DNA of 57,911 nucleotides, the filler included, from Jimgerdemannia flammicorona (Eukaryota), in assembly GCA_003990765.1 (NCBI GenBank). It is 3 parts of 3 records of this genome, joined end to end, with 100 filler letters (N's around TTAATTAATTAA, not from the genome) between each part and the next. Parts side by side here need not be neighbours in the genome. Positions count along the whole stretch, not along the records: positions 19,340 to 38,575 come from RBNJ01001991.1; 2 more parts are not named here. One strand, written 5' to 3'. Both the position numbers and the translations under genes were made by a program. This document shows, piece after piece, positions 7,048 to 38,090 of this stretch. The stretch's first letter is position 1. Each line of letters opens with the position of its first letter. The notes beneath the pieces were generated by a model. That model saw nothing but the letters and a program-made list of their open reading frames with translations, was not told the DNA's origin and searched no databases.

Positions 7048-7153
<106 letters not shown>

Positions 7154-13039: not shown

Positions 13040-13320
13040 TTTTTTTTTTTTTTTTTTTTTTTAATAGACTTAAAGTTCTGCAGATTTTTATTAGAAGGAA
13101 ACCTAGACTATATATAGGCCAAAACTCTTCCCCACCACTTCTTGAGTACTATATCTCTATAAAATCTAAACTAGCTATTATTCAGCAGCTTGACTATATT
13201 AGGAACAATAGAACTTATATTAGTCTATACCTCATTCTACATATATACTCTTTCTACTACTAGAGAGAAAATGATCATATGTCTATGATTAAAGATATAT
13301 ATCCAAAACTCCAATATATA
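13040..13320 (-). mobile_element. 5'-truncated LINE 3' fragment (tail family 2)
   Basis: Poly(T) followed by homology to 5980-6230. Confidence 0.55.
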
Positions 13321-13569
13321 TATAAGACTATACTTGAGCTAATTTATATAATCTCTACTACTCCAAGTAGAGTAATAGGTAAAGAAAAACTCCTCTTAAA
13401 GTACAGAATAATAGATAGGACTTAGTTCTCTCTGATGAGGTAAGTAGAGAACTTATATATAAGGCAGAAGAAGACTCTTAATATCTCATTACTCAAGCCT
13501 ATAGACCTTAATCATATTGCTATATTAGCTTTTAGTTTCGGTTGAGTGTAGCTAAGATAGTATTATTTA

Positions 13570-16500: not shown

Positions 16501-19239
16501 TTAGAGAAGTTGTTAATGATATGAGCTAAATTGATAGTAGTTAGAGAGGGAGGAGATTGGTAGACTCAGTAGATCAGATTCAAGATAGAGGAACTACAGA
16601 AGTTACTAAGGTAGGAGGAGAAATTACAAGTAAAGAGTATAGTAGTCTAGCTATAGTGATAGGACTTAGAGGAGAGAGAAAAGTCTATGAAGTTTTTATC
16701 AAGGCTACTTTGGGTAAGAAGGGTGAAGTAGTAGTGAGAAGGAGTATTAGATAAGGTAGAGAAGATAGTGGTAAGAACTTAGGAGATCTTGAGCTATTTG
16801 AGTAAATATTAGAAATATCTATAAAGTGAGAAGAAGAGTGAAGAGAATATACTAGATATTGAATAATATCTGAAGAACTGATACTCAGACCCAGTAGAGG
16901 GTCTGGGAGAACTTATAGTAGTAGTATAAGGAGAGAAGATCTATTAGGTATTGGCAATGATAAGTCTTGAGATAGCCCCTAAGGAGGAAGATCTACTCTG
17001 AAATTTCTAAAAGAGAATAGTAGATATTAAGTTAATATTAGAGGAGATAGTATAGATATATAATAAAGTTATTAGCTCTGAGGCCTAGATTGAGAGATAG
17101 TATCTGAGACTTATAGCTCTATTATATAAGGATAAGAGAAGAAGAGAGGAGTAGAAGAACTAGAGGCCAATCATACTCTTGGATATAGATTACAAGTTGG
17201 TCATAAAAATCTTAGTAGCCAGACTATAGAGAGTAGCTCAGAGAATACTAGAAGAGAAGCAGAGAGACTTTATTAGTGACTATTTGATTATAGATAGAAT
17301 AGTATAGATATATAGTATTATTGAGAGAGCTTATGCTATAGGAGTAGATAGTCACCTTATGTTTCTGGACCAGGAGAAAACTTATAATATAGTTAAGAGA
17401 ATATGACTGAAGAGAGTTCTAAAGTAAATTAGAGTTTCTTTAGAGTTTCAGAGATCTTTAGTTAGTCTGTTAGAGGAAAGTCAGATAGCTATTATAGTGA
17501 ATAGGTACTAGGAGATTTCATTCCTCCTAGATAGAGGGGTACTGCAGAGAGATCTACTATTACTGATCCTTTATACTCTTTCTTTAGAGCTTCTGTGAGA
17601 CAGAATTAGATATAAGATGAGAGGGTTAAATATTCTTGAGATGAATTGGAAGGTAAAAATCTTTACTGATAATATAGTAGTTGGGCTGAGCTCTGTGGAA
17701 GATATGGTAGCACTGAAGAAAGCAGTGGAATAGTATAAAGAGTACTCAGAGACCAAGTTTAACTAATACAAGTATGAGACCCTGGTATTAGAAAGAGAAA
17801 TAGTAGGCAGAAATGTAATTGGAATAATTATTCTAGCAGAAGAGATGGTTTATTATTGGGAATCTACTTCTTAGTATATAACTCTCTATTATCTAGGAGA
17901 TGATAGGAGCAGTAGTTAGTAGAGTGAAAGAATATACTTCTAGAGTAGAAAGGTTGATATATCTCTCTAACAAGAAGAGTAATAGTATTGAATATATATT
18001 AGCTACCTAAGTTGTAATATCTGGCATATTACTTAGACTTTCCAGTATAAGTAGTCAAGAGATTGCTAAAGATAGCCCAGATCTAGATCTGGGCAGAATG
18101 GTATAGTCAGATTAGATGAGAGATATTAATGCTACCTGTCAACTAGGGGAGGTTGGGTCTGGTGGATCTTATCAAGTGATTATACTGCTTGAGAATATGG
18201 TGGCTGAGATGAGCTAGTAAACTACAGGGTCAGAAGTAAGTATCTCTTATATAGAAGATGTAGGAGGTATAGTTCTCTCTCTAAGATATGTCTGATAACT
18301 TACTCTCTCTGATAGTACTAGAGGAAAGCTAGAGGATACAATTTAGGAGATTCTGGTGAGATATAGTAGATAGAACTCATTATATTAGTCTCTGCTAGTG
18401 GGGTGATGAGAGTAAGATAGACTAGAGACTCCAGATATAAAGATGAGATCATCTTTTGCTGGAGGGGATATCTGTAAATAACTTTTATCTAGAGGATGAT
18501 ATAGAGTATCTTTAAGAATATGAGAGAGATCTGTGACCAGAGGCTTAACAGAGGATAGAGATTAGTGAAGAGTGGGACTAGGCTGACATCTGATCATAGA
18601 GTAAGAAGATGGTATAGTAAATTCTGCCCAAGTTCTAAGTAACATGGTGGAGGCTTCTATAATAAAATATGATATTGAACTTTTGGTCAGAATATCTGAT
18701 AGAAGAGAGGGCCTTAGAGTGTGAGGAGTACTTTGATGTCAGACAAAAGAGAGAAGTGGTTCAGATCTCAGAATATTAGCTAGGAGAGTGTAAAGTACTA
18801 GAAGACTTTTGGAGAGTAATCAAGAGCTGGCTGAGAGACCACCCCCCTGAGCTAGAGATAGAGGAGAGATAGGATGGCCTCCAGAGGAGGCTGGTGGGAG
18901 AGATTGGTAATGAGTGATTAACCATTGGATAGATTCTGGCTGTATGAGTTAGACTTGCTGAATATTGACTGTATATATTTGAGGATGGCCAGAAGTTGAC
19001 ACTTGGGGTGTAGGTTGCTAGGTGGGAATGATTAATGCTAGGGCTTTTGAATGGATAGTAGTGAGGGTAGGAACCTGGAAGAGGAATTTGTCAAGGGCTT
19101 ATAGAGAAGATTTGTGAGAGAAGTAGGGGGAGGATCAGAGTGGTAGAGAGGAATGATGGTGTTCCAGATGAGTGGATGGAGGGAAGGGAGCGGTTGAAAG
19201 GGGGGTCCGGGGGCGGAGGCGTCGGGGGATATCCTTTTT
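13570..19239 (+). mobile_element. Degenerate L1/Tx1-type LINE (ORF1; ORF2 APE-RT), copy A, running into the gap
   Basis: ORF1 relics (SFADKVK, CCHC-like knuckle ~14360-14410). ORF2 starts ~15560 with RIFSLNxNG, then GDFN, RID, KNWRPITLLDxDYKL (~17155), FLDQEKxY (~17362), QxDxL..xLY and FxDD. Colinear with 33305-38090. Confidence 0.85.
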
Positions 19240-19339
19240 NNNNNNNNNNNNNNNNNNNNNNNNNNNNNNNNNNNNNNNNNNNNTTAATTAATTAANNNNN
19301 NNNNNNNNNNNNNNNNNNNNNNNNNNNNNNNNNNNNNNN
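19240..19339. other. Artificial contig linker (N44-TTAATTAATTAA-N44)
   Basis: Six-frame stop palindrome centred in exactly 100 bp. Identical to 38576-38675. Confidence 0.97.
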
Positions 19340-19433
19340 AAAAAAAAAAAAAAAAAAATGGTATGAAAGGAGAAACGTAGCACGAAGGGAGAAACTGCTA
19401 AATACTCTATCTGGACTGAACCTTGGGTTATAG

Positions 19434-19607
19434 AACGATGGCGACATTTACGACGCATTGCGCGAGGCCCTTACATACCTTACAAAGCAACGAAACATTA
19501 CGCAAGCTCTACAATTCTCACTTACGAGGGTGGCTGCGACAACGGAGGGCGGTGGGGGAGAATCTGCACAAATGCAAAAAGGAGGAGGAGGATTTTCGCG
19601 CTCATGA
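19434..19607 (+). CDS. Possible terminal exon of an unidentified host gene
   Basis: CTGAAC branch-like site and TAG acceptor, then NDGDIYDALREALTYLTKQRNITQALQF...FSRS* in CpG-intact DNA. Confidence 0.3.
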   Translation, partial: NDGDIYDALREALTYLTKQRNITQALQFSLTRVAATTEGGGGESAQMQKGGGGFSRS

Positions 19608-20632
19608 CGCCACAGGGGCTGGCGGCAATAAATAAGAAGGAGATCGAAGATCTGATGACGCCGTTGACGTTGCGGGCGGGAGAGGATATTTTTTGAGTAT
19701 TATGTTTGGAGAGTCGAATGAGCCCTGTGTCGTTTGCAATTGGCTCCCCTGATATTATCCCCTAGTATTTCTTCGTGAGCAACAGAGTGTCCGCGTCTGA
19801 CACTATTCAGTAAGCACATTAATGAAACTAACGGTGTTGATGTTCGAGGCTTTCAAAAAACGTTCATATGTTGGAAGATGTTATCCGCGGACCGAAAATC
19901 CAACGACGAGAATCCATCAAACCAGTCACCATTATCATACAGTGGCCTAGATAGACTTGTGCAATTGGGAGGAAGAGTGTTAGATTGTAAATGTAGTATT
20001 ACTGCTCGCTCTGCACTAATTTACTTACTGATAGTATTGTCCTTCAGAAAGAATGTAAACATACCCGCTATTTTTTTATTTAATGGATGCAGTTAATAGC
20101 TATTATCCGTTTAAACCCTTTTTCACACCTGCAAGAATTCCCGTAATACATTAGTAAGAGTGCGAAAACTTGCATGATACCTCGGAAGGAACTTCTTTGT
20201 GATGTTTCCCAGAAGTATGTCGCTAATAAATAAAGAGCGGTCGTGTGCCTGAAAAAGTCGGACCTATTGGGACGTCTTTGCTAATGAATTCCTAGGGATT
20301 TAAAATTCTGGCACCCGTCTGGTGGGGAAATTGCGGTACTCCCTACAATGCAAATATCGCTTCCATACAGCACATAAGAAAACAATTTCTTGTTTGCTGC
20401 ATGTACGTAAGTCCCGCGATTTTTTGTATCCTATATTCACTAAGGTCATAATTTCTTGGGTGCTTCCTATGCAAATGCAGCCCGACATACAAAGATCCCG
20501 ACTGGTCTACAGTTTGTACTACAACAAAAATAGTGACATGCACATATAATGACAACTGATGGCTTAAACAGGTATCAAGCCGATCGTGTCAATCAGCAAT
20601 TACACAATTAGCCTCTCAAAACTTATGTATAT

Positions 20633-21675
20633 TGTAATGTGCCAGCTCAATGGAGGCAAATTACAAGGTTGGGGCTGCTATGTAGTTTGGCTTAAGTCCC
20701 ACCAGTTACTTATTCAAAAGCAACAAAATGTTCAATAGTTTCTCTGTTTTACATATGTAACATAGATAATTTCGGTATATTTCCTAATTAGGCAGCATTC
20801 TTGGGGTTTCTGTGTAATGTGGATTTTCTTATTAAAAAGGGTTGAGGTAATTTCTGTATAGTGCGAGTGATTTCCTTCTTGACTTCAGTGTGATGATCCT
20901 GGCAATTGTGATATGGACAATCTGGCAGTTTTTCTTATTAGGTAGAAATTCAGGTGATGTGGATTCTTGAACAAAATGGCAGATAGTGTGGATTCTTTCT
21001 GAACCAGCAGATTACTTAAAAACAGTGGACTTCTCTTCTTGGCTGACAAAGTTATATCAAAGACTGCTTTGTTTGTATAAACAGATTTATTGCAAATATG
21101 TATCAGATAGACTAGTTTTATAGCAAGATGGTGGACTTCTTTAAAATAACTAGGATGATTTGAATTTCTCTCAAATAGCAGCAAAGTTCTTTACTCAAAC
21201 TTAGTGGCAAACTCAGGCTTTATATTGAAAAGTGGACCAGAGTGAAAAATAGCTCACAACTTCTGAGCAGTGGCTCATTAGTAGGTTTCTTCTCCTAAGT
21301 ATATCAGAAAATTAGCTTTTGCTTTAATTTTTAGACTGAGGTTTATTTACTCTTATCTTTGAGATATTTTATAAAGTTGTGATTACTATCTGATTGCTAT
21401 GTAGCTAATTATAGAATATACAGGAATACTATTTTGAGAAGAGGAGTGATCAGATATATCTATTAAATACAAATGTATCTGATAGGTATAGGTGTGTTCA
21501 AAAGATACAGGTATATCTGATGGATATAGGTATGTTCTTAGGATACAGACCAATAAAGCTGATTTAGTATCTTACTAATTATAAGTAGTAGTATATATAA
21601 GTAACTAGGTATAAGTAACTATACTATGCTGAGTATTTATATTATCTAGTAATACTATGTTATTTACTTATTACA
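20633..21675 (-). repeat. 3' LTR of the gypsy element
   Basis: TGTAA...TTACA. Direct repeat of 29366-30403. Confidence 0.85.
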
Positions 21676-24600
21676 TCAGCCTCCACAAAGAGTAGTCTGT
21701 CTCTAGACTATTTTTTAGTCATCATTGTAATATCCATAGATATCTTCAGCTTCTATGTCTATACTATTATATCTTCTTTAGTATATATCTGAATTACTCT
21801 ATTCTAGTGGCTCTTCTTCTTTCTAAGAGAACAGATCTTCAATGTAGTTGATAATGCTTAAGTAGGTAGATATGGTTATTTTCTAAAAGTCATTTATAGA
21901 GAACTGGACCTAGGTTAGTACTGTAATATTTTATTTGTAGATTGTGTAGAGTCTGTCTATAGCAATAGTATTTCTTCTGGAAAGATCAGTAGTATTGTAG
22001 ATATAGATCTGTTCTGAGGCTAGAAGGTTTTGTAGTAGTTAGTTAATTATATAATAGGCCTATAGTTGGTGAATCTATAGTAAGCATTTTGCCAAGGTAA
22101 GGTTTTCTTAGTATACCCAAATCTATTAAAGATAGGTTCTATTAATTTCTCAGAACTGAGATAAGAGGACTTGTAGAGATTAAAAAAAACTAAGAACAAG
22201 AGTATAGAGATACTGATCAATCCTCTAATTTATTATATAGATAGTAAGTATATCTTAAGGTAATTGGTATAGACTGGAGTCCTCAGAGTATATCTATTTA
22301 TACTTCTTAAATAGATGCTAGTTCCTCTAATATTATATATAAGATAAGGTTCTTTCTATTTGAGCTATAGTTTGGTGGCAAAGTTATTTTAATAATACTT
22401 CTCTAGACTAATACTAGATCTCTAATCTTGATCTTCTTATCTTTTTACTTCTGATCATAATACTTCTTTAGACTTTTCTAGGCCTTGATTATGTGAGCTC
22501 AGACTTGATTATATAATTATTCTGCTTTTTTGAAGAGATCTCTGAGATTCTTATAATTAGTAGTTCTGGTTCTCTTAGTAAACATCATCTTGAATAGCTT
22601 TGTTTAGTAGAGATAGTAGGGGTATTATGAATTTTCCATAAGATTTCTGATAAGTAGAGATCCCAGTTGATAGGATTAACTCAGACAAGTTCTTTCTTGA
22701 TAGTTTGGTTCATTTATTCTATTATATCATTAGTTTGAGAGTAATATGATACAGTTTATTTGAGGTGGATCTTGTGAATTCAGATATAACTTATGATTAT
22801 ATTATTGATAAATTCAGTACCTTAGTCAGAAATAAGTTCTTCTAGAGGTCTATATCTAAGTATAAGACTAATGAAGAGGCCAACAATAATTAAGACATCA
22901 GCAATTTCCATTGAGAAAGCTTCAGGCCATTTAGTCAAATATTTTATAAATATTAGAATATATTTGTTCTTTCTCAATATAAATAATAAGAGTTTAATAA
23001 TATCTACTTTCTATCTCTGAAAGATATTGTCTAATGATATAATTGATTATAGTAGTACTTAGTAGTTCTCCTTTTCTTAGTATTTCTGGTAGATATCATA
23101 TTTCTTAAATATGTCTCTGACTTGTATTCTGAGATTAAGTTAATGTTAATATATTATTTATAGCTTTACTTCTATATTTATCTATCCTTGATGGGCTTTC
23201 TGGTATTCTTTTTAGAAAGCTCTTCTTGTGCTTTGATAGTTATGAGAGCTTCCTTTAGGATATAGTTTCTCAATATACTCTTCTTCTGATTCATTGGAAT
23301 TGGTAGAAAAGTATATCAACATTATTGTAAGCTTTTTCTAACTTATAAATAATAGTGATTTTGTAATCCTATAAGATAAGAATCCAGCAGATAAGAATTC
23401 CAGTAGGTTTCTTACAGTTGAATAGTTATTTGAGAGTAATATAGTTAGTTATCAGAGTGAATCTTTTTCTGATAAGATAGTGTTTGAACAGGGTGACTAT
23501 CTATATAACTTTAAGATATTATAGTTTAGTACTACTATAATTGGTTTTTTGTTAGTTGATAGCTCAGCTTGTATATATTAGCTATTATATAGTACTGCTG
23601 ATCAGATTCTTCTTGAGCTAGAACTATACTGAGCTATCTTTGAAGATATCTATATATAAGATAAATGACTTCTATTAGTTGAGTCATATAAAGATTAGTG
23701 CTATAATCATATAGCACTTGAGTTCTCTAAAGGCTAGTTCTTGTAGTTCTATCTATTTATATGGTTCTTCTTTCTTGAGAAAAGTTTGAATTAGAGTGAT
23801 AATTTGGGCTAAGTCTTTGATAAATCTTCTATAGTAGGATATTAATATCAGAGATGATAATGTTTTCTTCTAGATCTTAGATACTGACTAGTTATTGAAC
23901 TTTTCAGTTTTCTTTAGATCTGCTTGAGATCCTTCTTTAGAAATAATAAATATAAGAAATTTGAGTTTCTATTTTTCAAAGTAGTTTTCTTAATATTGAG
24001 TCTCAGGTAGTTCTTACAGATAAGTTGGAAGAATTCTTTTAAATAGTGCAGGTGTTCTTCAAAATTTTCTGAATAGATTTTGGAATCATCTATGTATACA
24101 ATCAGGCAGTGGTAAATCAGTAGTCTATAGACTGAGTTCATTATTCTCTAAAAGATAAGAGATATATTACAGAGGCCAATGAGTATTCAGAGATATTCAA
24201 ACAGTTTTTCAAGAGCAAGAAAAGCTGTTTTCTGAATATCTTTGGGGTCTATAGAAATCTCATAAAATTCTGCAAAAAGATCTATACTGCTAAAGTATCT
24301 GGTATCTTTTAATTGATCTAGAAGGTCATCAATTCTGGACAAAGAGTAGATATCTTTTTCTATTACTGAGTTGAGCTTTCTGTAATCTTTGCAGAGTCTC
24401 CATCTTCTTTTCTTGAGTATAATAAATATTGAATGGTCTAGGAGCTGATAGAGAGTCAGATAACTCTATTATCTAAGAGTTTCTAAATATGTTCCTTCTC
24501 AAATATCTTTAGATGATGGAGTATTCTCTAAGGCTTTTGCTGAATAAGTATTGTATTTTGTATTTATACTATTATAGTATAATAGATTATATAGCAGATT

Positions 24601-25375
24601 GCCATAATCTATAATAAAAATATCTTGATATTTATGAAAGAGTTCTACTAGTTGCTATTATTACTGAGGGATTAATTCTTCTCTAATATTAGTAGAAGAC
24701 TTTACTTTCTCCTTAGTTACAGAAAGGCCTTTCCTTTCTTCTGAGACCTTTTGCTATTTTATGATAGGTTTAGTTTATAAACTTCTCTGTAAGTCTAGTT
24801 GAGATAGGGTATCAAATAGTCTATAATGGTTTCTTTTAGCAGAATGAGGCTTTTCTAGTTACTTAAGAGTATACAGGATTTATTTTGTCAGAAAATATGT
24901 ATCTTCTATATCTAAGTTCTTAATATCCTTATTAGATTTGAAGAAGAGATTCTTAGGATTAGATAGTGTAAAGATTTTAAAGATGGTCTCCTCTCCTAGT
25001 TCTAGAGTGAGGTTTTTGTATAGCTTGACTAGTTGACAGTATATATATTAAGGAGTATCCTTCTTGAAGTGGTTGACCTGAAGGAGGTATACTTCTTTCT
25101 TGTCTAAGTTTCTAAATTCTTCAATTTGTCTTGTATCTTAAGTTAGTATTGAGATCTCTTATAGTTGGAGAGTCTTGATCTTCATGAAGATAGCTTGATC
25201 AATCTTTTGCCATTTATAGATTCCATTCCATTCTATATTACTATTATTTAGAATGACCTTAATTTTGTCTATATATCTAGAATCTATTGTTTCTCCTTCA
25301 ATAGTTATTCCTTATCTAGTGAGTCCAGACCTTGAGATAAGTTTCTTTGGATAATTGTATAGCTAGTTCTATACT

Positions 25376-25518
25376 TAGTACTTCCAAATAAATCAAATTA
25401 ATTTAAATCAAATTAAATTGAGGCTCATTTAAATCAAATCAAATTGGGGATTTTTCAATTTAAATAAAGTTTGAATTGAATCAAATTAGACCTTTGATTT
25501 GATTTGTTGAGAGTACTC
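25376..25518. mobile_element. 143-bp hAT-type MITE inserted in the gypsy dUTPase region
   Basis: Perfect 8-bp TSD TCTATACT (25368-25375 and 25519-25526), TAGTACT../..AGTACTC ends and AAATC/GATTT subterminal repeats. Confidence 0.8.
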
Positions 25519-28500
25519 TCTATACTAAGTACTATTATTCTTCTTAACTTAATAGATTTATCTCTGAGGCTATGAAGGTCATATTCTATATCTTTCTGTA
25601 AGCTTTGATTAGAGGTTTGGCCTTAGAATGTAGCAAGATATACTGGGTAATATTTTCACTGAGATTGAGTTATTCTTAGACTGAGGCTCTAGTAGACATG
25701 AACTCTCAGACTTTAAGATTAAGGTGTGGTCATCTGGCTCTAATGGAGGGATCTCAGAGATAATTGATTTTTATTTTTTCTATAGAATCTAGGGTCTCTA
25801 TGAAGCTGATGACATCTTCTATCTATCTTTGATGGGTTTTATATTTGATGAGGGCTAGGATATCATTTTCTAGATTATAGATCTTAAGAGTCTTCTTCTT
25901 TGATTTCTTAATTTAGTTTCTTCAAATATAAGCTCTATAATCTCCTTTCTTCAATATATGTATAGTAATATCTTTACTGAGATAAATCTTCTAATATAGA
26001 TAGTCTCATTAGTCTAGAGGTTTTCTATAATTACAATATCCTATTACTTAAAAATATAGTTCTCAGTTATTGACTTCTTACTGTCTTAGGAATCAGTATC
26101 CATTCTTATTATAAGTTGGAAGAAGGATAACTATTGGCTCAGAAGAAATAACTCTATTCATTGGCTCAGTTTTTTAACATTATATTTATTTCTTAAAAGT
26201 AATTATTTATATAATTATAATTAGAGATCCTGGTCTATAGTATCTCTAAATTTCTTACTTATCTATTAAGTAGCACTGATAGCAGTAGTCCTAGAGAGAG
26301 CAAAAGACCTTTTGATACTAGTATCTTTTTAGCTAAAAGACTCTTTCCTGATATATTTCTCATCTTAAGATAATGATAACTATGCTTAGTCCTTCTTCAG
26401 CATTCCAGGAGTCATTATCTTCTAGTAATATCTAATGGAGGTTATTCTAGAGGATAGATTTAGGGAGTTCCTCTGTTTGGGAACTTTTTGTTCAGAAGTT
26501 TCTTTATCAGATGTTTCTTGATCACAGATTGCTTATACTTCTGTAGCTTCAATTATAGATATCTTCAGAGAGTAGTTGGATTTCTTTTTTCTTTTTCTAT
26601 ATTCAGAGTAGGCTATATTAGAAAAATTTTATTTTAATAATTTGAAGAAATATTTAAAGTACTTATATAGAATATTCTGTGACTTGTTCTGCAATACCTC
26701 TGATTATGATAGCAATAGTATCTTTAGCCCATATATTATCTACTGGCCTATCATCTACTAGATTGATTTATGGATTAAGTCTGGAATCATTTCTATCTTC
26801 AGATTCTTCTTCTTTCTCTATCGTAAATTCTTCACTACTAGTATACTCTTCCTGAATAGTGACTTTTTACTTCTTCTTTGATTACTCATAGATAGTTACT
26901 TTAATTCTATACTTCTTTTCTCAATAGTCAAATTTGAGTACCTATTGATTAATATCAATAACTATATTTATTTCCTTCATCTAGTTGATACTAAGGATTA
27001 TATTATAAATGATAGCTTTAGTATCAATAGCTTTTGAAATAGAGAACTAAATGTGTCTAAGAGAGATAGTGATATTTTATACTTCTCTAAGAGGTTGAGT
27101 TTGGGTTCTATCTGCTACTATGATGCTGAGATTTGATGGTCTATCAATGGGCCACTAGAGGGTATCTAGAAATTACTTGGTAATGATACAGATAGCTACT
27201 CTTGTATCAATGGGAATTTTTACCTTCTATCCTTCAATATCTCTATATAAGTATATGTTGATATATCTTTCTATAGCCTAGATAGTAGTTGGTACTAATT
27301 CTTATTATGGGATTGAGATCCAGCTAGTGCTGGACCTAATAGTCCTCAATAGGTTATTTTAAACTCTAGCAGATATCAGTTGTAAGAAATACAGAAGAGA
27401 GACTTCAATCTTGGCTTCTTAAATCTTTTATAAGACTTTATTATAGATATTCTAAGATATGGTCTTTGGAGTATACTTCTTTTTGGGCTTTGAAACAATA
27501 GACTCTTATTCTCCTTACTCTATTTCTTCATTCTCTAATAGTAGTTTGTTAATTTCAGAGACAAATAGTAAAAGAGACTGGAGAGATATTTCAATCTGCT
27601 CTTCTTTATCTTCCTCATATTCTTGAATAATTCTTCTGCTAGTATTTCTGGATGATCTTCCTACTGATCTTTTCCTTTTCTTAGCTGAATAGACTGTTTT
27701 CTTAGTGATAATCTTGGTAGAGTATAGGTCTAGATTACTGTAGTCTTTGCTATTACTCTCTTATTCAAAATCTTTGACAGAGTAAGCTTCAGTCTTCTTG
27801 AACTGAGTTGCATTCTTTTAATTTAGTAGTTCTGAGTCTCTTTGATCACTTCTTCTATTATTATATTCTATAGTATAGTATCTGAACTGTCTATAGTAGA
27901 AGTATTAGACTTAGACTCTATCTCAGACTAAGTATCTTCTTTCTTCTTATAGCTGTTAGTTTTTGTTATTTCTGAATAGATATGTAGTCTTGATTCCTTC
28001 ATAGTATATATCCTTATTATCCTATAGATAGCTCTGATTTTTACATATTGTGAGTTTTTTAATTTGGTTAACCAATTAGTCTAACTTGGAGTTAAGGTCT
28101 TGGATTTCATTTTTCTCTTTTTTTTTTACTTCTTGACTGATTTCTCTTTTTCTAATTTATCATATTCTTGAAGAAGTCCTTATAGGATTTTAATCAAGAG
28201 ATCTTCCTTATTATCTTTTTTATCATAATTACTCCAGATAATTTCTTAACTGATATCAAAAAATCCTTAAGCTGTATCTATCTGTTCTTTAGGCTTTCAG
28301 ATATCTAGAATACAGATATACTAGGCAAGATTTGGAGGGATTCTATTTATGAAGATCATAATGTCTTGGTTGGTAGTATTGAATCTGACTATATATTCTT
28401 TTCTAAATTCTAGTGAGGAATGCTTGAGTAATTCTCTAATATTTATCTTTATTCTTATTATAGATTCTTGAGTCTTATGATAGATTTCATTTCTTATATA

Positions 28501-29365
28501 TTTTTTAATAAACCAGTAAGTCATAACTCTATATTCTTTTTCTCAAGATAATGTTATATAGATGGCTGCTCTCTGGTCTAAATATACATTACTTACTACT
28601 TAGTTGAAAATAGCTTAGCTGGTTCTCTGAGTTGGGCTTTAAAGAAGTGACTTTTCTCTAGATAAAGAAATTCTTTAGAGTTGTATTTCTTTAATTCTAT
28701 CAAGAAATTCTCTGGGTCTTCTTCTAGATATCTTATAAAGATTGACATTGAGGTGACTATTTCATTATTACTATCTTCTGGTTCTGATTCTGATTCTGAT
28801 TCTGATTCTGATTCTGATTTACTTTCTGAGTTATTACTAGAGCTTAAGATACTTGGATATCCTGAAGATAGTGTTATTGATATTGAATAAGGTACAGTAG
28901 ATCTGAATATCCTTAAAGGAACAATTTTTAATTCTTTTGATTCTGTAATTACTGATCCTAGTAGTAGTTTAATGGGGGAGACTGGTAGAACTTCTGAGAG
29001 AAACTGAGATTATATAATAAAATATTCTAATTCTTATACAAGCTTATTGAAGTTTCAGGTAAGGTCCTTTGTATTGTCAGATTGATCTAGTTGATCTGAT
29101 TGATCTGATTAAATCAGGTCTTCTGATGATAAGTCTGATTGAGGATTCTATGCTATATTGACTTCTGGTTGAGATTCTTCTAATACTAAATAATTGGCAA
29201 GTCTTGAGATAATTACTTCTTTTTCTGTCTAAATACTAGTGATAATTCATTCTTTTATAGTAGTAAAGATTAGTGTTATATCAAATATATCTAGTTTGGT
29301 TATTGAGTTATTATAAGCAAAAAAGTTATATAGATTAAAAAAATCTTTCCTATTGAGCTCTCAAA

Positions 29366-30403
29366 TAGAATATATAGTTCTATGGAGACAAATTATAAGA
29401 TTGAGACTACTAATTAATTTGGCTTAAGTCTCTAGTAACTTTGTCAAAAGTAACAAAATATTAAATAATTTCTCTGTTTTATATAATAAGAATGATTTTG
29501 GCAGATTTCTTAATTAGATACCATTTTTGAAGTTTTGTATAATATAGATAATTTGTGAATTTCCTTATTAAAAGAGATGGTAGTAATTTCTGTATAGTGT
29601 GAGTGATTTCCTTCTTGACTTCAGTGTGATGATTGTGGCAATTATAATATAGATGATCTGGCAGTCTTTCTTATTAGACAGAAATTCAGATGATGCAGAT
29701 TTTTGAACAAAATAACAGATGGTACAGATTCTTTCTAAATCAGCAAATTACTTAAAAATGGTAGACTTCTCTTCTTAGCTAATAAAGTTTTGTTAAAGAC
29801 TACAATTTATACAAATGAATTCACCACAAAGATATATCAGATAGACTGGGTGGTAAAATAGCAGACTTCTTGAAAATAATATAGATTTCTCTTAAATGAT
29901 AGTAAAGTTCTTCACTCAAACTTAGCAGCAAATCCAGGCTTTGTTTTGGACAGTAGACTAGAGTGAAAAATAGCTCACAGTAGCTTATTAGCAGATTTCT
30001 CCTCCTAAGTATATCAGATAATTGGCTTTTGCTTTGATTATTGAACTGAGAATTATTCACTCTTATCTCTGGAGTATTTTATATAGTTGTAGTTGCTATC
30101 TGATTTCTATATAGCTAACTATAGAATGTGTAGTAATGCTATTTTGGAAAGAGGGGTGACCAGGTATGTCTGATAGACACAGTTATATCTGATGGGCACA
30201 GGTGTGTCTGATGGGCACAGGTATGTCTGATGGGCACAGGTATGTCTGATGGGTACAGATGTGTCCTTAGGATATGATCAACAAACCTGATTTAGTACCT
30301 TGCTAATTATAAGTAGTGGTGCATGTGGGTAACTAGGTATGAGTAACTATACGATGCTGAGTATTCATGTCATCTGGCTATACTATGTTATTTGCTTGTC
30401 ACA
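29366..30403 (-). repeat. 5' LTR of the gypsy element (contains 19-bp CTGATGGGCACAGGTATGT tandem repeats at ~30160-30265)
   Basis: Direct repeat of 20633-21675, ending TGTCACA. Confidence 0.85.
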
Positions 30404-30888
30404 ATATATATATATTTGTTTGCACATTAGAAATTATTGCCCTTGAGTTTAGATTTCTAAATCCACGTGGTAAATTGTGGCACTGCGTATACAGGAAATT
30501 GTGTCGCTGGAGTGAAAACAATCGTGGCAACGAAGTGCTTGAAATTACGGCCCTAGAGTGAAAGCAATCGTGGTACTTGCATATAGCACTCAAGAAATCG
30601 CACAAAAAGTTTAAGTACAAAAAATCGTGTACGACCTTGTGCATGCGGACCTTGATCTTGTCGACCTTTTCAATCTGCTTAGTTAGCTATCTACAGGCTA
30701 TCAATTACGTTTGCTAACCTAAACCAATGCTCAGCCCCACTTACAGTCCTACGGACGGCGTTGAAAATTTTTATCTCAATAATAACATTGTACTAAATTA
30801 TAAAATAATTCTCGAGAACACAGCTTTTCTCTTAAAACAGGATAATTGAAATACTTTAGTTCGACAAAGGGAATTCGTAGATTGAGAT

Positions 30889-31371
30889 CTAGGATCGCTT
30901 TTCTGTAACGTCAACCCAGCAAAGCCTGTCAAGGCGAGTACAACGAGTGCAGGGTGCCCCTCGACAGCGTTTTTTATTCCATTTACATTCAGCGCACACC
31001 TCCCCCGGAGGAGTTCGCTTCGTACGATTGATGGTAGGGTGAAGGGGACATCGTCTCTTCCTCTTCGAGCAGTCCGGACAGCTCTTATACGGAATATACC
31101 TGGGGATGAGTGTGATTGCGGTGGAAGTTCCTATGATGACATTCGCTGAAGTGAGAGATGGCGGACTAGGAGCGAGACTTTGAGAAATAAGTCCCGGCTT
31201 TTGCGTTGCTTGTTTCATTGCAGCGGCCTTTGAGAAGTTGCTGTCATGGAACTTTGACTTGAGATGGACTTGAATGGCGCCTATATGGCGAAATAATGTT
31301 GGGCACATCGGAGAGGGGCAGAGGATATAAATGTGGAGGTGTGCAAAATTAGCTGAGGTCGAAGTTGTTGT
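30889..31371 (-). CDS. Small zinc-finger protein: C2H2 finger + CxxC-x6-CxxH + Zn(II)2Cys6-like cluster (5' end unresolved)
   Basis: The open frame reads CPSPMCPTLFRHIGAIQVHLKSKFH ... CPDCSKRKRRCPLH ... CAECKWNKKRCRGAPCTRCTRLDRLC. CpG intact. Confidence 0.65.
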   Translation of the reverse strand, partial: TTTSTSANFAHLHIYILCPSPMCPTLFRHIGAIQVHLKSKFHDSNFSKAAAMKQATQKPGLISQSLAPSPPSLTSANVIIGTSTAITLIPRYIPYKSCPDCSKRKRRCPLHPTINRTKRTPPGEVCAECKWNKKRCRGAPCTRCTRLDRLCWVDVTEKRS

Positions 31372-33304
31372 CTAGAGTCCTGGGATATTCGTTGTTGTCC
31401 GCCATATGATATGAGAATATTCCACCACCTTTATATGTGGAAAAATAAAATAAAAATTAATAAATAAAGTAAGAATCCGGCACAAAATAATGTCGCACAT
31501 GGAGGGACCGCGTGTGAGTTCAACTGAACCACCGCAAGTTTAGCAACAATCCCATTCGCCGTTGTTGGATTAATGTTTTGACTACCAAAGAATTGGGGCG
31601 AGTAAACAAAATAAACGGAGTCGAATTTTACTTCGGAATGCTCCGATGAAAGTAGGAAGGTTTAATAATTTCCGGGGGCGTGGTCAGGATCGAGGAATAT
31701 AGTAACAACTTGTGGATTTGCAACGAACAGTCTCCAAAGTTGAAGAGCGAAGTCAACGTTGACCACATGGCTAGCTTCTTTGTCAATTAATATGTTGAAG
31801 GTGCGTGCTCAGTGTAAGGAAGTGTGCCTGAATACGAACTGACAAGATCTTGTAATGAGTGATCCGGATAGAATAGGCTCAATTTGTCGAAAATCCGCTG
31901 CACGTTCACGATTTCTTTGATGACTTGGCTTTGGTTCATGGGTAACTGGAAACTTTGATGGAGTCGCTGTCTGAAAGGGAGCGGGATCTGAAAGAGATTA
32001 TTCGGCGCAGCGGGTGACGTAGTATTGCATAATCGCTTCCGCAATTTCACCATCCGCGTCATGGGTCATCACCATTTCCTAAGCTTCTCACGCGTTATCT
32101 TCTGGTATCTGGATGCAGTAGCGACCGCCTCAGATGCTGTCTCCTTGTCGAACCCGAGTTCCCTGGTAGGCAGGTAATGAACATCCACACGAACACAATC
32201 TGGGTCCCACTTGTCGATTGGATGGGAGAAGGAAAATATAAAAATGAGAGTGGCGATTTGTTTTCCATCGCGGCGCCTGCACCTGCGCACCTGAACCAGA
32301 ACCCGAATCTGAACTTATGTATTGGCGCTTGGCGTTGGCTTACGTTAGCAAATTAATATACGGAATGCGAAGCTGAGGATTGCAAAAGCTGGACACGCTA
32401 CCACTTGCATAGTTGAAAATGTACCTCAGAATGAGTTCACGTAAAACTTGTGTGCACACAAGAAATCATGGCCTTTAAGTGTGGCCATAGAGAGAAAAGA
32501 GTCCATACAGCACACATGAAATCGCGGTCATTGAGTGCAAGAAATTGCACAAGAATCGTGACCTCAGAGTGAAAGACATCGTGACCCTTAAACTTGTACG
32601 GCCTACAGCACATGTCTCTTAAATGAAAAAGAAGAGACAATAAATCGCTGGCTTTCACAAAAGCAAAAACAAAAACAAAAACAAAAAACAAAAACAACTG
32701 TGCAAAAGTTCCGTTCTCCAGTAAGACGAAGATCTCAACTCCAGCACGCCCGATTTATTTCGTACGACATACTGGTTATGTAGAGTATGCAAGGTTAAGA
32801 TTCTGTAATAGTTATTTTCATTCAACGGGAAAAAGTATCGCAGGTTACAAAATGTGTTCATGGGAGAAAGTGGGTATTGACACCTGTAGCTCTACTTTCT
32901 ACAATATAAGAATAAAGTAGTATTCTTATTACAGAAATCTCAAATCTGACTTATTAATGATTCCAAGTCTGATTAACTTAGGATATATATATAATCTCAG
33001 TCTCTTCTAAAGCAAGAACCTGAAAGTGATACTTAGACTCTACTATATTAGACAATTTAGAACTAAGCACTTTCTCAAGAACTTAGAACTCAGAGCTGAT
33101 AGTTATTATTAATTACCTATAATATAGTAATTCTATTGATATATAGTTTTATTATACTCACTTAGTAATAGTAATTTGAGTATAAGTAATCTAGTATTTA
33201 GCAATCTATTTTTCATTAATTATATCTAGTTTTTGATTAAGTAGCTATTTTAATTTGAAATACTCTTAGAACTCAGTATAATGACAACTCTTTCTCTAGT
33301 AATA

Positions 33305-36300
33305 CAGGTTACACAAACTTCTAACAACTCTCAAGATATCATTTTTGAACAAAAGGTACTAGCAATATGGTAACCAATGAGCATTCTGAGATATATACTG
33401 GGTAGGGTGACTCTAGCACATTTAGCTGATAGTATGTAGAGAGGAGTTATGTCTTGGGGGGAAGTATGAGGGGCTTGCTGGCTGGGGGATATAGGAGGGG
33501 AGGAGGCAGTATGAGGAAACAGAGGACTGGGAGGGTGAGTTTTACAAATAAGATAAAGGGAGAGAGGCAGTATGGAGAGACAGGGGACTGGGAGGGAGAG
33601 CTTCACAGATAAAGTGAAGGAAAGTTATCTGACAACTGGACTGGAGGGCTGGCTAAAGAAGGATAAGGAGATAGTGAGGACTACAAGGGCTGATAGAGTG
33701 GTCTATAGTAGGAAGGGCAGTAGGGCTGAAGAACTGCTGATGGTAAGAGGACTACTAATCTGGAAAAAAAAATCCAGATATGATAGCTAATGGTGGATCT
33801 GGACAGGGGGTGGGAATGAGGTCTGGAGATCTGGTGGATGGTGTAATGGATCTGGTGGATGGTGTAATGGATCTGGTGGCAATACTATTACTCAAGAAAT
33901 CAAGATCAGAGTTTGCTATTATACTGTATTTCTGTGGCTTAGCAGTAACTGTGAGAATGATTCTAGGGCTTCTGGCCCAGAAGATAAAGGGAGCTACCTC
34001 AGTGAAGTTTTTGAAAGAGCTGGAAGAAGTGGAGGTAGGATTCAAGAGAGCAGAGGTGCTGTTGGAGGCAATAGAGAAGAGAGTAGTAGAAAGGGGGGTA
34101 GTGATTTCTATGGTCAGGTACTTATGCTGGGACCCCTAAGTAGTACAGTTGACAGTAATGGATATTCCTATAGTATTGAGAGAGATGGCCAGAGGGCTGA
34201 TTGTAGAGGCTATCAAGGAGTATGGAGACATTGTAAATATAGGTTTTCAGATCTGAGAAGGTATAGTATTCAGGATAAGAGATGTGGACATCAGGGTATG
34301 ACTGGTAGGTAAGGAGAATATAGAGAGGACATGGGACTGGCTGGTAGTACTCAAATGAGAACCAGTAGAGTATAAGATCTCAAGAGTAAAAGGGATACAG
34401 GAGAAAAAAGAGGACCTACTGGAGGTATTAGAAGATTTGGCTAGAGCTATTGAAAGGAGGAGACTGGTCTGAAAGAAGTTTGGGACCAAGATAGTAGTGG
34501 AGATTATGAATAGCAAGAAGATATAGCTGGATCAGGCAGTCTGAGCACAGGTATAGAGGAGATGTATTCAGAAGAATCTATTGGCAAAGCTGAGAGAGGG
34601 GGCAGCAGGGGAACTATTGCTGAAGATGCTGAATCACTAGCAAGTGCCTTGGCAGGAGAGACAGAGGTGGCTCCAGAGGGGACCCAGAGAGAGAGAGATG
34701 GCCCTGGATTGAGTGTAGTCATGGAGGATGCAGAGATGGTAAAGGGGAAGTATCCTCAGTATAGAGTGCTGGCAGAGCTACTGGTGAAGATAAACTGTAG
34801 GATGTACTGGAGGAGGATTGGAATGAGTTGAGAATAGGAAATGTAGAGAAAGGGCAGATAGAGATGGTGCAGAGGGTGGTCCAGAGAGTTGAGGAGGTAG
34901 TGAATGAGGAGAGATAGCTGTGCAAAATGCTTAAGAATATGGTAGCTAAGGAGCTGGGGGGAGAGGACTTTTGGGTTCTAAGTGAGAGGCACTAGGATGA
35001 TATTCTATATAGCAAAGAGGTGCTGAGGAAAATCAGAGATAAGATAATAATAGTCTTACTAAAGGCTGAGGTTTATCAAGTAGATGATGACAGAGAGTCA
35101 GTACTTAGGACAATTACTGCTTATATGTGGGATCCAAAGAAGGGGCTGAAAAAGTGGTGGGTGGTTTGTGAGGAGTATCAGGCAGAGATGGAGACTGTGG
35201 ATAGTGTGGATTATCAGGAGATCTTAATAGCACTGGATGCTCAGCAGGGAGAGGCAGATAAGCTTGAGGCAGAGAGAAACTTGGATTGTATAGGTGATGA
35301 GATGAGTATGGAATTGTAGAGTTAGTATTTCTTCTCAAAAAACATTATTTAATATGAACAGTATAACTAGAATCTTCTCTTTGAATATTAATAGACTGAG
35401 GGGTATAATGAGATGTCAGAATATCTTTAGTTGATTGAAAGGACTGGATGTAGATCTTTTTTTATTACAGAATATAAGTGGACTTGGACTTACTAGATTG
35501 GATAAGAGAATGGGGAGATGTAGTAGTATAGCAGGGTTGGGTGGGCTTTCTGGTTAGGAAAGGGGAAGGAGATATTAGGGACATTAGACATTGGGAGAGC
35601 AGACTAGTGTGGGGAGTGTGGAGGAGGCCAGGCTGGACCCCCTGACTGTTGGGTCATGCTACTGCCCTGCAGAAAGGAGGGAATAGATAGATTGGATCAG
35701 AGGATTGTGAGAGACCAGTATTTTGGCAGCTGTGGATATTGACTGTTTGGGAGGTGACTTTAATATGATATATAATAGTAGGCTAGACAGAACCAATGGA
35801 GAGAGGAGTATAGTGGATAGGAGTGGAGTGATGGAAGATTGGGAGAAGATTGAGAGACTGAGTTCTTTAGTGGATGCCAGGCAACTTTGGTGGGAAGATC
35901 ATCAGATCTATACTCACTGGATAGCAAGGCTGAGATTGAGAATAGATAGCTGAGTGCTGGAGTGCAGATAGTGCTCTAAATGAGTCAATCCAGATGAGAT
36001 TTGAATTCCATCCAGATCAACTCAGATGGGATTCAAATCCCATCTGGATAGATTCAAATCAACCATTGTTTTGATTTCCAAATTAGACAATTAAATGTTT
36101 ACATCAATAACTCAATAAATAATCATCCAAATTTGATGATCTTGGTGTCATTTGAAAGCCCTTACTAAGGTCTTTCTAATGATATCAGGAATATTAAAAT
36201 CAGATTATTCAGTGCCAAGATATTAAGGAAAACATTCTATTTGATAAAATTTTCAAATTGGCATATTGAATAATTTCCAAAATCAGTAATTCAAACATTT

Positions 36301-38090
36301 CTCTTCATAACTCAGCAAAGCATAATCCTATTTCAATATTCTTGATATCATTAGATAGGCCTTATTAAGGGCTTTCAAATGATACTAAGATTATCATATA
36401 TGGATGATTATTCATCAAATATTGATATAAATATTTAATTGTTTAATTTGGAAATCAAAACAATGGTTGATTCAAATCCATCCAGATGGGATTTGAATCT
36501 CATCTGAGTTGGTCTGGATGGGATTCAATCCAAATCAATCCAAATCCAATCTAGATTAAATTGACTCATTAGGAGTACTAGATGCAGATGTCTGGAGTGA
36601 GATTGTGACACTGGTCAGACCACTGTGGCTTACTGGGGAGAGGGAGGTTTGGGGGTAGTGGAGATGGGTCTGGACATTGATATCTGAATATCTCACTACT
36701 GGGAGATAGTATCTTATAGGATGAATAAGTGGTAGAGATTTGTACTAGGATTGTTAGCTAGAGGGCACAGGGGTTGGAGATTGGGAATCATTAGTAGTGA
36801 TTGAAATCTGATGCTCAGAAGTACTGGGGTGAGACTGGGAGAGAGAGAGGAGCTCAGCAGAAGTGGCATATTAGGTGGGCTTCACTGAGGTTGGAGAAAC
36901 TGCTAGAGAGATAGGTGGGGTCTTTGGCAGACTATAAGAAAGGAGACTGGAGGATTCAAAGGATTCAGTAGGAGGTAGCCAAACTGAAGGAGCTGCTTAG
37001 ACAGGAGGAGGCATTGTAGGTAAAGAGGTTAGTGGCTTGGCAAAGATGGCAGAGTTTGGAGGAGAGGGAGAGGTCTACTAAATTTCTATCAAGGCTGTTA
37101 CAGATAAGGAGGATGAGGTAGCAGTGGGAAGAAGTATTGGATGAGGCAGAGAATATGGTGACTGAGATATTAGAGATCTTGGGCCTACTGTAGTCTTACT
37201 GAGGGCAGCTGTGGAGTGAGGAGGAGAGTAGTGAAGATGCTTTAAGTATTGAACAGTAGTTAGAAGATTGGCACTCAGACCTAGCTACAGACCTGAGTTA
37301 ACTTAAAGTCCTGATGAAAGGAGAGAAGATGTATTAGGTCTTAGCAATAATAAGTATAGGGACAGCTCTTGAAGAGGATGGGTTATCTTGAAATTTTTGG
37401 AAGAAGATGGCTGGAGTTGAGATTGTACTGGAGGAGATAGTGTAAATGTATAATGAAGTCATTAGCTTAGAGACCTGGATTAAGAGTCAGTACCTGGGGC
37501 TTATAGCTCTATTGTATAAGAACAAGAAGAGATGAGAGGACTGAAAGAACTGGAGGCTGATAATACTTCTGGATATAGATTACAAGTTGGTGATAAAGAT
37601 TGTGGTGGCCAGGCTGTAAGAAATAGCTCAGCAGATACTTGAGGCTGAACAGAGGGGCTTTTTCAGTAGTTGTTTGATTTGAATAGGACAGTGTAGGTTC
37701 ATAGTATTATTGAGAGAGCTTGAGCAACTAGTATTAATAGTCAACTAGTATTTCTGGATCAAGAGAAAGCTTATGATAGAGTTTGGTATATATGGCTGGA
37801 GAGGGTATTGAAATAAATAGGAGTCCCACTGAGGTTTAGGAGATCATTGATTGATCTTTTGGAGGAGAGTCAGGCAGCTATTACAGCAGGGGAGAGTCCT
37901 CTCCCCTGGGTAGAAGAGTGCCACAAGAAGATCCATTGTTGCTGATTCTCTATACCCTCTCATTGGAGCTCTTGTTGGATAAGATATAGTATAGAGTTGG
38001 GGGTTTGGACATTTTGGAAGTGAACTGAAATATTAGAGCCTTTACTGATGATATAGTGGTTAGGCTGGACTCTATGGAGAATGTGGCAGT
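33305..38090 (+). mobile_element. Degenerate L1/Tx1-type LINE, copy B (interrupted by a MITE, ends within RT)
   Basis: Colinear with copy A. Relics: SFTDKVK, RIFSLNxN (~35370), CLGGDFN (~35750), KNWRLIILLDIDYKL (~37545), FLDQEKAYDRV (~37752), FTDD (~38041). Confidence 0.85.
35969..36580. mobile_element. 612-bp fold-back hAT-type MITE
   Basis: TAGTGCTCTAAATGAGTCAA...TTGACTCATTAGGAGTACTA with ~250-bp inverted arms. The 8-bp TSD copies AGTGCAGA and GATGCAGA are each one G>A away from GGTGCAGA. Confidence 0.85.

Follow-up and report, generated by a model that had tools for sequence, protein, structure and literature searches.

Edge-tapered transition load in the twin LTRs of a dead, probably Ty3/Gypsy retrotransposon from what looks like an early-diverging fungus

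The window analysed here, i.e. the whole stretch of 57,911 nucleotides, consists of three pieces of ~19.2 kb joined by N-spacers (N44 TTAATTAATTAA N44 at 19240–19339, and a second spacer at 38576–38675), and its interval 20633–30403 is, judged by sequence, probably the degenerate remains of a minus-strand Ty3/Gypsy element. The left LTR (20633–21675, minus strand; 1043 bp, TG..CA), which in this orientation is the 3' LTR, forms a direct repeat with the right or 5' LTR (29365–30403, minus strand; 1039 bp), whose first bases are mutated and whose end reads ..CACA. The degenerate interior (21676–29364, minus strand) has a GC content of 0.29, a single CpG in 7689 bp and 170 stop codons in one frame. 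It retains, on the minus strand, remnants of a reverse transcriptase (23953–24414; Pfam RVT_1, E 3e-16), whose conserved columns were used in the direction test described below, of an RNase H in a different reading frame (23363–23674; Pfam RT_RNaseH, E 4.8e-10) and of a dUTPase domain (25144–25341; Pfam PF00692, E 7.6e-06; coordinates converted from residues 1342–1407 of the frame starting at 29364), while no integrase family was found in the element by Pfam at E 0.01 or better. A possible 4-bp target-site duplication, ATAT (20629–20632, repeated at 30404–30407 after the right LTR), is weak owing to its low complexity. No second copy of the element occurs elsewhere in the window, and a 27-base stretch identical between both LTRs has no exact match in the metagenome contigs. 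Protein searches with the degenerate pol returned only relatives at 25–56% identity. Of five that were checked, the four with a name belong to a pseudoscorpion and a frog and provide neither an outgroup nor a taxon.

The DNA on both sides is of a different kind. The left flank (19340–20632), which has no second copy in the window, contains 58 CpG at a normal observed/expected ratio (o/e 1.02), and the right flank (30404–32840) contains 117 CpG (o/e 1.04) with no CpG depletion beside the element; in the first 250 bp the ratios are 0.74 and 1.18, respectively. Flank GC (0.42–0.43) is higher than that of the element, and Pfam searches of both flanks found no host gene or transposon family, save a weak RVT_1 trace at ~37.5 kb. 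Across the window, CpG is essentially gone from every transposon, genes and unique DNA have o/e near 1, and the boundaries are sharp. CTK1 and GUF1 lie on another piece than the Gypsy element, and a CTK1 exon shares 85–89% identity with Mucoromycota proteins vs 81–85% with the listed Basidiomycota proteins in a 62-residue comparison, a match compatible with a non-Dikarya fungus. The host of the dead retrotransposon looks like an early-diverging fungus. The first-pass annotation had supposed a non-Dikarya fungus; the taxon argument for this is weaker than was assumed, as it comes from 62 residues on another piece. An 840-aa low-complexity ORF (45450–47969) gave no match at E<=1e-10 in a protein search.

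Of the 996 columns that MAFFT aligns between the two LTRs (now ~79% identical), 791 are identical, 170 differ by a transition and 35 by a transversion. The transitions are divided 85/85 between the two copies, the copy bearing A or T being almost always the segment that faces the interior. In successive 100-column bins from left to right, sites with G/C in the left LTR and A/T in the right number 13, 15, 7, 15, 13, 10, 4, 5, 3 and 0, and sites of the opposite class number 0, 5, 3, 4, 11, 6, 9, 15, 17 and 15. The positions of the two classes are clearly separated (Mann-Whitney p=2.7e-13) and cross over near column 543 of 1058. The first-pass annotation had claimed, from two quoted sequence pairs, a flip of polarity between the LTRs made up overwhelmingly of transitions; both pairs are present at their positions, and the formal alignment with per-position tabulation bears out the flip as well as the excess of transitions. 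Its warning that LTR-divergence dating is invalid here is likewise justified by a total divergence of 205/996 vs 35/996 for transversions only.

Metagenome contigs provided comparators: of 80 loci, 49 are at least 5 kb long, 12 of these carry direct repeats 2.5–15 kb apart, and five were analysed. Left out were L003 and L054, whose repeats are >99% identical, L059, where the repeats overlap as a tandem array, and four loci with short, nearly identical repeats at the two ends of the contig (L060, L063, L066 and L079). None of the four testable LTR pairs shows polarity (0/4; the fifth has too few changes), and the polarity is therefore not a generic artefact of comparing LTRs.

With both LTRs folded so that distance counts from the outer edge, the CpG, CpA and CpC cytosines changed amount to 0/44, 4/50, 6/53, 8/47, 16/52 and 16/46 in the first six bins and to 18/47, 20/52, 22/57, 23/44 and 17/32 in the next five bins inward. 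After correction for invisible double hits, the mutated fraction in each LTR is 0 at its outer edge, climbs inward and levels off at ~0.5 after ~520 bp, the taper of the left LTR (20633–21150) being mirrored in the right (29885–30403). A ramp-to-plateau fit gives a plateau of 0.50 and a ramp length of 520 bp (support about 430–680 bp), and its AIC (508.9) is better than that of a constant level (567.6) or of one sharp step (516.6). A smooth sigmoid or an exponential (511.3 each) does almost as well, and separate ramps per LTR are no better than a common ramp (nLL 251.77 vs 252.43). The 7.7-kb interior carries the same load as the LTR plateau and matches the inner LTR bins in composition. Since the two plateaus are the same, the polarity flip represents the two tapered ends of a single contiguous mutated domain. 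The proposal that the load scales with distance across the whole domain is not supported, as the taper covers only the outer ~0.5 kb and the interior is flat. Mutation does not leak into the unique flanks, the load being already zero at the element's own edge.

Exactly such a flip, with overlap in the R region, is also predicted if RNA-guided or transcription-coupled targeting marks only the transcript unit, from its start in the 5' LTR to its poly(A) site in the 3' LTR, so that the 5' U3 and the 3' U5 escape; a step (column 430 in the left LTR, 820 in the right) indeed fits only slightly worse than the ramp (shared-step AIC 516.6 vs 508.9). However, U3 is usually far longer than U5, and the asymmetry expected from this is contradicted by tapers that are symmetric in outer-edge distance (shared 252.43 vs separate 251.77). 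The innermost bins still climb instead of forming a step, strand bias is absent, and the control element described below is mutated to its very ends, all of which makes transcript-unit targeting improbable.

The changes follow a distinct context rule. In the left LTR they affect CpA 46/147, CpC 21/91, CpG 9/22 and CpT 6/124, and in the right LTR CpA 37/147, CpC 25/91, CpG 11/22 and CpT 8/124, corresponding to rates of 41–50% for CpG, 25–31% for CpA, 23–28% for CpC and 5–6% for CpT (CpG > CpA ≈ CpC >> CpT). In the zones lying 0–250, 250–500 and >500 bp inward of the outer edge, the changed proportions are 9, 28 and 51% for CpA, 8, 31 and 43% for CpC, 1/3, 7/7 and 12/14 for CpG, and 2, 2 and 9% for CpT; this one polarity across four contexts fits a single graded intensity multiplied by context-specific rates. 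Among the 170 transitions, 20 are at inferred CpG, 143 at CpA, CpC or CpT and 7 without an assigned context, in agreement with the earlier claim that many non-CpG sites are included. No strand bias was detected in the LTR changes (per-site rates 0.26–0.35), and there are no strand-coherent runs (40 and 41 runs vs null means of 37.1 and 38.8). A processive single-strand deaminase was rejected, since the strand-coherent runs expected of it are absent.

The direction of change was examined in 57 conserved columns of the interior reverse transcriptase, where 36 residues match the homologue consensus and 21 differ; of the latter, T>C or A>G would restore 10, the reverse change one and a transversion five, and the other five need at least two changes. 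From this ratio of 10 to 1 for C>T/G>A in the interior, we infer that the LTR changes, too, are C>T and not T>C. As the LTR direction is obtained in this way and not by outgroup polarisation, and as the flanks (0.42–0.43) are GC-richer than the element, it could be argued that no graded mutator acted and that the outer segments instead gained G/C through GC-biased gene conversion or repair from the flanks, or that patches were homogenised by less mutated copies. Such a gain is very improbable in view of the 10:1 interior direction, the contiguity of the stop-filled interior with the inner LTR halves, the agreement of the CpT-sparing context rule with the control pair, and long unmutated runs that are within chance length (P 0.31–0.36). 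Gene-conversion patches, considered for an odd 33-nt block shared by the LTRs, were dismissed on the same run lengths.

The proposed check by RIP indices was run on the interior, and the classical indices do not clearly call it (TpA/ApT 1.09; (CpA+TpG)/(ApC+GpT) 1.07), leaving the result equivocal. With CpG hit hardest, CpA hit no more than CpC and no clear call from these indices, the process acting on the Gypsy element does not match classical RIP.

An unclassified repeat-bounded element (7148–11638), surrounded by CpG-free, AT-rich transposon DNA, served as a control. It contains direct repeats at 7471–7972 and 11137–11638 and a 335-bp terminal unit in three copies (7148–7483, plus strand; 7638–7972 and 11303–11638, minus strand), and a six-frame Pfam search of it found no family. 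Its repeat layout, which we took to suggest a DIRS-like element, gave it a name that was dropped, since no RT or recombinase was found. Over 502 columns, the copies of the control pair differ by 75 transitions and by not one transversion; the changes fall at CpG 27/68, CpA 25/138, CpC 22/170 and CpT 1/126 in both copies together, the same order as in the Gypsy LTRs. It is less mutated than the Gypsy element (plateau 0.245), and its load profile is flat (nLL 177.3 with no ramp, 184.0 with a 150-bp ramp and 197.5 with a 520-bp ramp), 13/50 susceptible sites within 150 bp of the element end being changed, with changes 7 bp from the end. The contrast of flank types is thus one between two tapered edges of one element and one untapered element on another genome piece. 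As the untapered control end lies in transposon-rich DNA, a heterochromatin-directed mutator fits better than a repeat-directed one. The first-pass annotation had left both open; the shared signature and the unprotected control edge favour the heterochromatin half of its proposal, and the repeat half fits less well.

A LINE-like copy (33306–38089) also adjoins unique DNA and has lost all CpG as far as its 3' end, beyond which the next CpG is at 38117. Its CpA depletion is slight. In an alignment to the related copy on the first piece, the changes inferred for it show no trend toward the 3' end; as a twin pair these two copies (13569–17710 vs 33306–38089) were rejected as too old (66–68% identity, 240 and 127 transversions). 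Since the LINE-like copy is little depleted in CpA, the non-CpG layer is unequal among transposons, which a simple model in which all transposons are heterochromatin does not predict. Load and background change are also disproportionate, with 0 transversions at load 0.245 and 35 at load 0.5, which hints at bursts, as in RIP.

These observations bear on a homology-dependent, RIP-like mutation, in which the LTRs (or copies elsewhere) pair and the effect fades where homology ends and is stronger beside the linker of a direct repeat. Neurospora repeat-linker-repeat constructs show qualitatively the same polarity, the younger control pair is transition-only (75:0), the disproportionate load hints at bursts, and CpA is hit less in the LINE-like copy, where internal repeats are lacking; the LTRs, now ~79% identical, are near the level at which RIP ceases to recognise repeats. 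As in Neurospora RIP, C-to-T changes affect both strands of repeated DNA, direct-repeat copies are more mutated on their inward side and reach zero at the outer borders, and, in the part of the Neurospora record used here, the DNA between the repeats is mutated too. The near-exclusive C:G to T:A transitions typical of RIP are found (170 vs 35; control 75 vs 0), but its strong CpA preference is seen neither in the Gypsy LTRs nor in the control pair. Fading at repeat borders occurs at both Gypsy ends and not at the control end, which adjoins other transposon DNA and for which even a 150-bp border zone is 6.7 log-likelihood units worse, with changes 7 bp from the end. In Neurospora the border zone measures ~150 bp, in the Gypsy element ~520 bp, and the context is CpA in the former vs CpG > CpA ≈ CpC >> CpT in the latter. 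In the DIM-2 branch of Neurospora, mutation reaches outward into single-copy flanks; in the Gypsy element the domain ends inside the element and the flanks keep their CpG (first 250 bp o/e 0.74–1.18). In addition, RID is reported only from Pezizomycotina in the sections of PMC9963178 relied on here. A RIP-like, homology-dependent process is therefore considered rather unlikely for this element.

Two other systems invite comparison. In plants, H3K9me-coupled non-CG methylation is divided between CMT2/DDM1 in transposon bodies and RdDM at their edges, and the bodies of long elements are high in non-CG marking and differ from the edges, a pattern that the non-CpG load of the Gypsy element resembles; however, gene-facing plant edges are often richer, not poorer, in CHH methylation, and both kingdom and enzymes are different. 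To our knowledge, there is no mutational read-out of this kind. Methylation-driven CpG decay of transposons, known from Basidiomycota and to be seen beside the CG methylation of transposons in Rhizophagus irregularis (PMC8647823), likewise erases transposon CpG and spares unique DNA. Unlike in plain CpG decay, the changes here also reach roughly one in two CpA and CpC cytosines, and 143/170 transitions are in CpA, CpC or CpT. In R. irregularis, only CG methylation was measured, according to passages of PMC8647823, and no edge taper is described in the passages used here. The introduction of that paper states that RIP-like signatures were not detected in Mucoromycotina, and according to the abstract of PMC12543289 they are placed in ascomycetes only.

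The reading we favour over a homology-edge effect of the classical RIP kind, with a probability of about one half and with one element of each kind to compare, is a methylation-linked mutator that follows a chromatin domain. A transposon-directed C->T conversion would act on both strands at rates CpG > CpA ≈ CpC >> CpT, uniformly over the interior and the inner LTR halves, where roughly every second CpA and CpC cytosine is changed and nearly all CpG are lost, and would fall off to zero along a straight ramp through the last ~0.5 kb toward the CpG-normal, presumably unmethylated unique DNA. The taper would then be the time-integrated profile of a domain of silent chromatin or cytosine methylation, whose intensity would be set by the DNA beyond the boundary and not by the end of homology. 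Both the chromatin basis and the enzyme are inferred: a DIM-2-like or DNMT1-class enzyme, coupled to H3K9me/HP1, may have methylated cytosine in every context, and enzymatic or spontaneous deamination may have followed. According to the passages of PMC9963178 cited here, DIM-2-like homologues occur in Endogonales and Glomeromycota, and RID-1 is restricted to Pezizomycotina. It is tentatively suggested, as a possibility well short of an even chance, that an Endogonales-like early-diverging fungus possesses a homology-independent, chromatin-guided mutator of CpG, CpA and CpC, not CpT, whose dose copies the silent-chromatin profile.

If a C-to-T mutator confined to transposons operates in this lineage, mutational genome defences would be more widespread than known so far. 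For the mechanism, the useful part is the edge behaviour, which separates the place where homology ends from the place where silent chromatin ends, and the window data point to the second; the taper spares the neighbouring unique DNA, unlike RIP leakage. In this genome, LTR-divergence dating and Kimura landscapes will badly overestimate ages, and unevenly so along each LTR. If the proposed mutator is real, twin LTRs would be a fossil record of heterochromatin boundaries, lying ~0.5 kb inward from transposon ends that face genes and missing where one transposon meets another, and would testify to a genome defence separate from both Neurospora RIP branches and from plain CpG decay.

The window is discontinuous, as two spacers (N44-TTAATTAATTAA-N44; 19240–19339 and 38576–38675) join its three pieces of about 19.2 kb, and features on separate pieces are thus not genomic neighbours. 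The CTK1-like and GUF1-like genes, named in the first-pass annotation for placing the organism, are located on the third piece, and the middle piece carries the only long direct-repeat pair (20633–21675 and 29365–30403) found by a repeat search and a self-BLAST of the window. The 7.7 kb between these LTRs contains minus-strand remnants of reverse transcriptase (Pfam RVT_1, 3e-16), RNase H (RT_RNaseH, 4.8e-10) and dUTPase (7.6e-06), which run through many stop codons (170 in one interior reading frame). The element is a dead retrotransposon on the minus strand, probably of Ty3/Gypsy type, and the right LTR is its 5' LTR, as the pol remnants lie on that strand. Its termini are TG..CA, and ATAT at its borders may be a 4-bp duplication. 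The dUTPase domain (25144–25341) lies upstream of the reverse transcriptase in the pol remnant, and this family is listed for none of the 42 relatives found by a word-indexed protein search. A unit of about 48 bp is tandemly duplicated in the right LTR towards its outer end (30161–30265), where 18 bp are absent from the left LTR, and minus-strand open frames of 101 codons (20888–21190) and 85 codons (29824–30078) occur within the LTRs.

The first-pass annotation had described C>T hypermutation whose polarity flips between the two LTRs, the copy facing the interior being the mutated one. This observation is confirmed, as the quoted strings were found in the sequence and the positional sorting of the transitions is far beyond chance (Mann-Whitney, p=2.7e-13). 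In a MAFFT alignment, the LTR pair shares 996 aligned columns, comprising 791 identical columns, 170 transitions and 35 transversions. G/C is held by the left copy at 85 transitions and by the right copy at 85, strongly sorted by position: per 100 columns, the left LTR retains G/C at 13, 15, 7, 15, 13, 10, 4, 5, 3 and 0 sites, and the right LTR at 0, 5, 3, 4, 11, 6, 9, 15, 17 and 15. The polarity is not generated by the analysis pipeline, as it appeared in none of four testable LTR pairs from metagenome contigs (p=0.23, 0.99 and 0.59 in three of them and, with the trend reversed, 0.096 in the other), a fifth pair having too few changes. These comparators came from a protein-profile scan yielding 80 Gypsy loci, 49 of them of at least 5 kb, 12 with direct repeats spaced as LTRs would be, and 5 usable; their transition:transversion counts are 87:22, 91:48, 110:61, 11:7 and 34:14, and CpT is not spared in them.

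The window holds no further copy of the element to act as an outgroup, and a 27-mer common to both LTRs has no match in the metagenome contigs. The direction of change was examined in the reverse transcriptase remnant by comparison with 345 aligned domains from 192 homologues. Among 57 strongly conserved columns, 36 agree and 21 differ; T>C or A>G restores 10 of the latter and the reverse change restores 1, while 5 require a transversion and 5 at least two changes, and the decay of the interior was thus C>T/G>A. The LTR changes probably had the same direction, as the inner halves of both LTRs directly adjoin the interior and share its composition. C and G of the plus strand are mutated at equal per-site rates (0.26–0.35), and C>T and G>A changes interleave as by chance (40 and 41 runs, where the null means are 37.1 and 38.8). 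Differences between the LTRs of one element must arise after its integration, owing to the way in which LTRs are synthesized, and cDNA editing is thus ruled out as their source.

With the G/C state taken as the earlier one and the cytosines of both strands classed by the next base, the changed sites in the two LTR copies are 9/22 and 11/22 at CpG, 46/147 and 37/147 at CpA, and 21/91 and 25/91 at CpC, while CpT is almost untouched (6/124 and 8/124). All contexts show the same polarity, and CpG is the first to saturate, with 1/3 changed at 0–250 bp from the outer edge, 7/7 at 250–500 bp and 12/14 beyond 500 bp. The main rival explanation is a homology-dependent, RIP-like process, for which inner-biased RIP between direct repeats in Neurospora provides a real, though qualitative, precedent for the polarity; however, the mutation context here is not CpA-specific, and the taper is 520 bp long. 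This length comes from gradient models which allow for hits in both copies, since such hits leave no visible difference. A linear ramp to a plateau fits best (plateau 0.50, ramp length 520 bp with a support interval of about 430–680 bp; AIC 508.9), followed by a sigmoid and an exponential approach (both 511.3), a single step (516.6) and a constant (567.6). With increasing distance from the outer edge, successive 100-bp steps have corrected mutated fractions of 0/19, 4/28, 6/32, 8/30, 16/34, 16/29, 18/35, 20/41, 22/53, 23/41 and 17/32.

The composition of the interior equals that of the inner LTR bins (GC 0.29, one CpG in 7689 bp), which together with the ramp fit indicates a load flat across about 8.7 kb and a taper confined to the outermost half-kilobase on either side. 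The flip between the LTRs is therefore two end tapers set against each other. The earlier interpretation holds in part. A transcript-unit model, which also predicts the flip, fits poorly, as the two tapers are symmetric and strand bias is absent; parameters specific to each LTR bring no better fit (nLL 251.77 for separate vs 252.43 for shared).

The repeat-bounded element at 7148–11638 on the first piece served as a control. It contains direct repeats (7471–7972 and 11137–11638) and a 335-bp terminal unit that occurs three times, with one copy inverted at the left end, and its plus strand is strongly pyrimidine-rich; as a six-frame search yielded no Pfam family, it is left unclassified. CpG-free, AT-rich transposon DNA lies on either side. 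The 502 ungapped columns of its direct repeats hold 75 transitions and 0 transversions, distributed as 12+15 of 34 at CpG, 14+11 of 69 at CpA, 13+9 of 85 at CpC and 0+1 of 63 at CpT, which is the context rule of the Gypsy LTRs. The profile is flat, with changes per fifth of 10, 6, 7, 7 and 9 in copy A and 7, 8, 5, 6 and 9 in copy B. The right copy terminates at the element end, where 13/50 susceptible sites within 150 bp are changed, the nearest at 7 bp. Compared with a model that has no ramp, a 520-bp ramp loses 20.2 log-likelihood units and a 150-bp ramp loses 6.7. Hence the taper is no general feature of repeat ends; it is present at CpG-normal neighbours and absent at transposon neighbours, with one element of each kind. 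The lack of any border zone here argues against the homology-dependent process, and the control is also at odds with the prediction of the transcript-unit model.

All transposon-like blocks of the window have lost their CpG, and in genic and unique DNA the observed/expected ratio is about 1, with sharp borders between the two. CpA depletion differs from element to element. A LINE-like element is present in two copies (13569–17710 and 33306–38089; 66–68% identical), with endonuclease-like and weak RVT_1 traces and zero CpG in both; the AT shift is stronger in the copy whose piece consists wholly of transposons than in that between unique stretches, and the copy at 33306–38089 contains a long imperfect palindrome (36001–36528), a 537-bp stretch matching its own reverse complement at 81%. 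Blocks 4400–7100 and 11640–13500 are very AT-rich (GC 0.18–0.30) and CpG-free and have diverged repeats in common, and a minus-strand Tc1/mariner-type HTH remnant (5374–5619) occurs in these blocks. Two further points favour the homology-dependent process: the load does not scale with background change (0 transversions at 0.245 vs 35 at 0.5), and the LINE-like copy at 33306–38089, which is without internal repeats, is only slightly depleted of CpA, although it has lost all CpG and has unique DNA at its borders.

The CTK1-like exon shares 85–89% identity with Mucorales/Umbelopsis proteins vs 81–85% with the Basidiomycota proteins listed, and no 100% match occurs among the matches listed. The first and second pieces probably come from one genome, as both carry the CpT-sparing signature. 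Ascomycetes are the only group for which PMC12543289 records RIP-like signatures, and PMC8647823 indicates that none were detected in Mucoromycotina. Among the papers listed by full-text literature searches, none dealt, by title or abstract, with positional LTR polarity or RIP-like mutation in Endogonales. New are the taper as measured here and its symmetry, together with the way in which it depends on the neighbouring DNA and the absent leakage, the key contrast coming from one locus of each kind.

A chromatin-domain origin of the mutated stretch is favoured over these rivals. The flanks adjoining the element show no CpG loss, which indicates that the domain ends short of the element's edge without outward leak, unlike DIM-2-dependent RIP of Neurospora, which leaks outward as outlined in 10.1101/115501. 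As indicated in PMC9963178, RID is limited to Pezizomycotina, while DIM-2-like enzymes are present in Endogonales and Glomeromycota. Cytosine methylation coupled to silent chromatin may cover the element, would be mutagenic at CpG, CpA and CpC, and would wane across about three nucleosome lengths toward the presumably unmethylated adjoining DNA.
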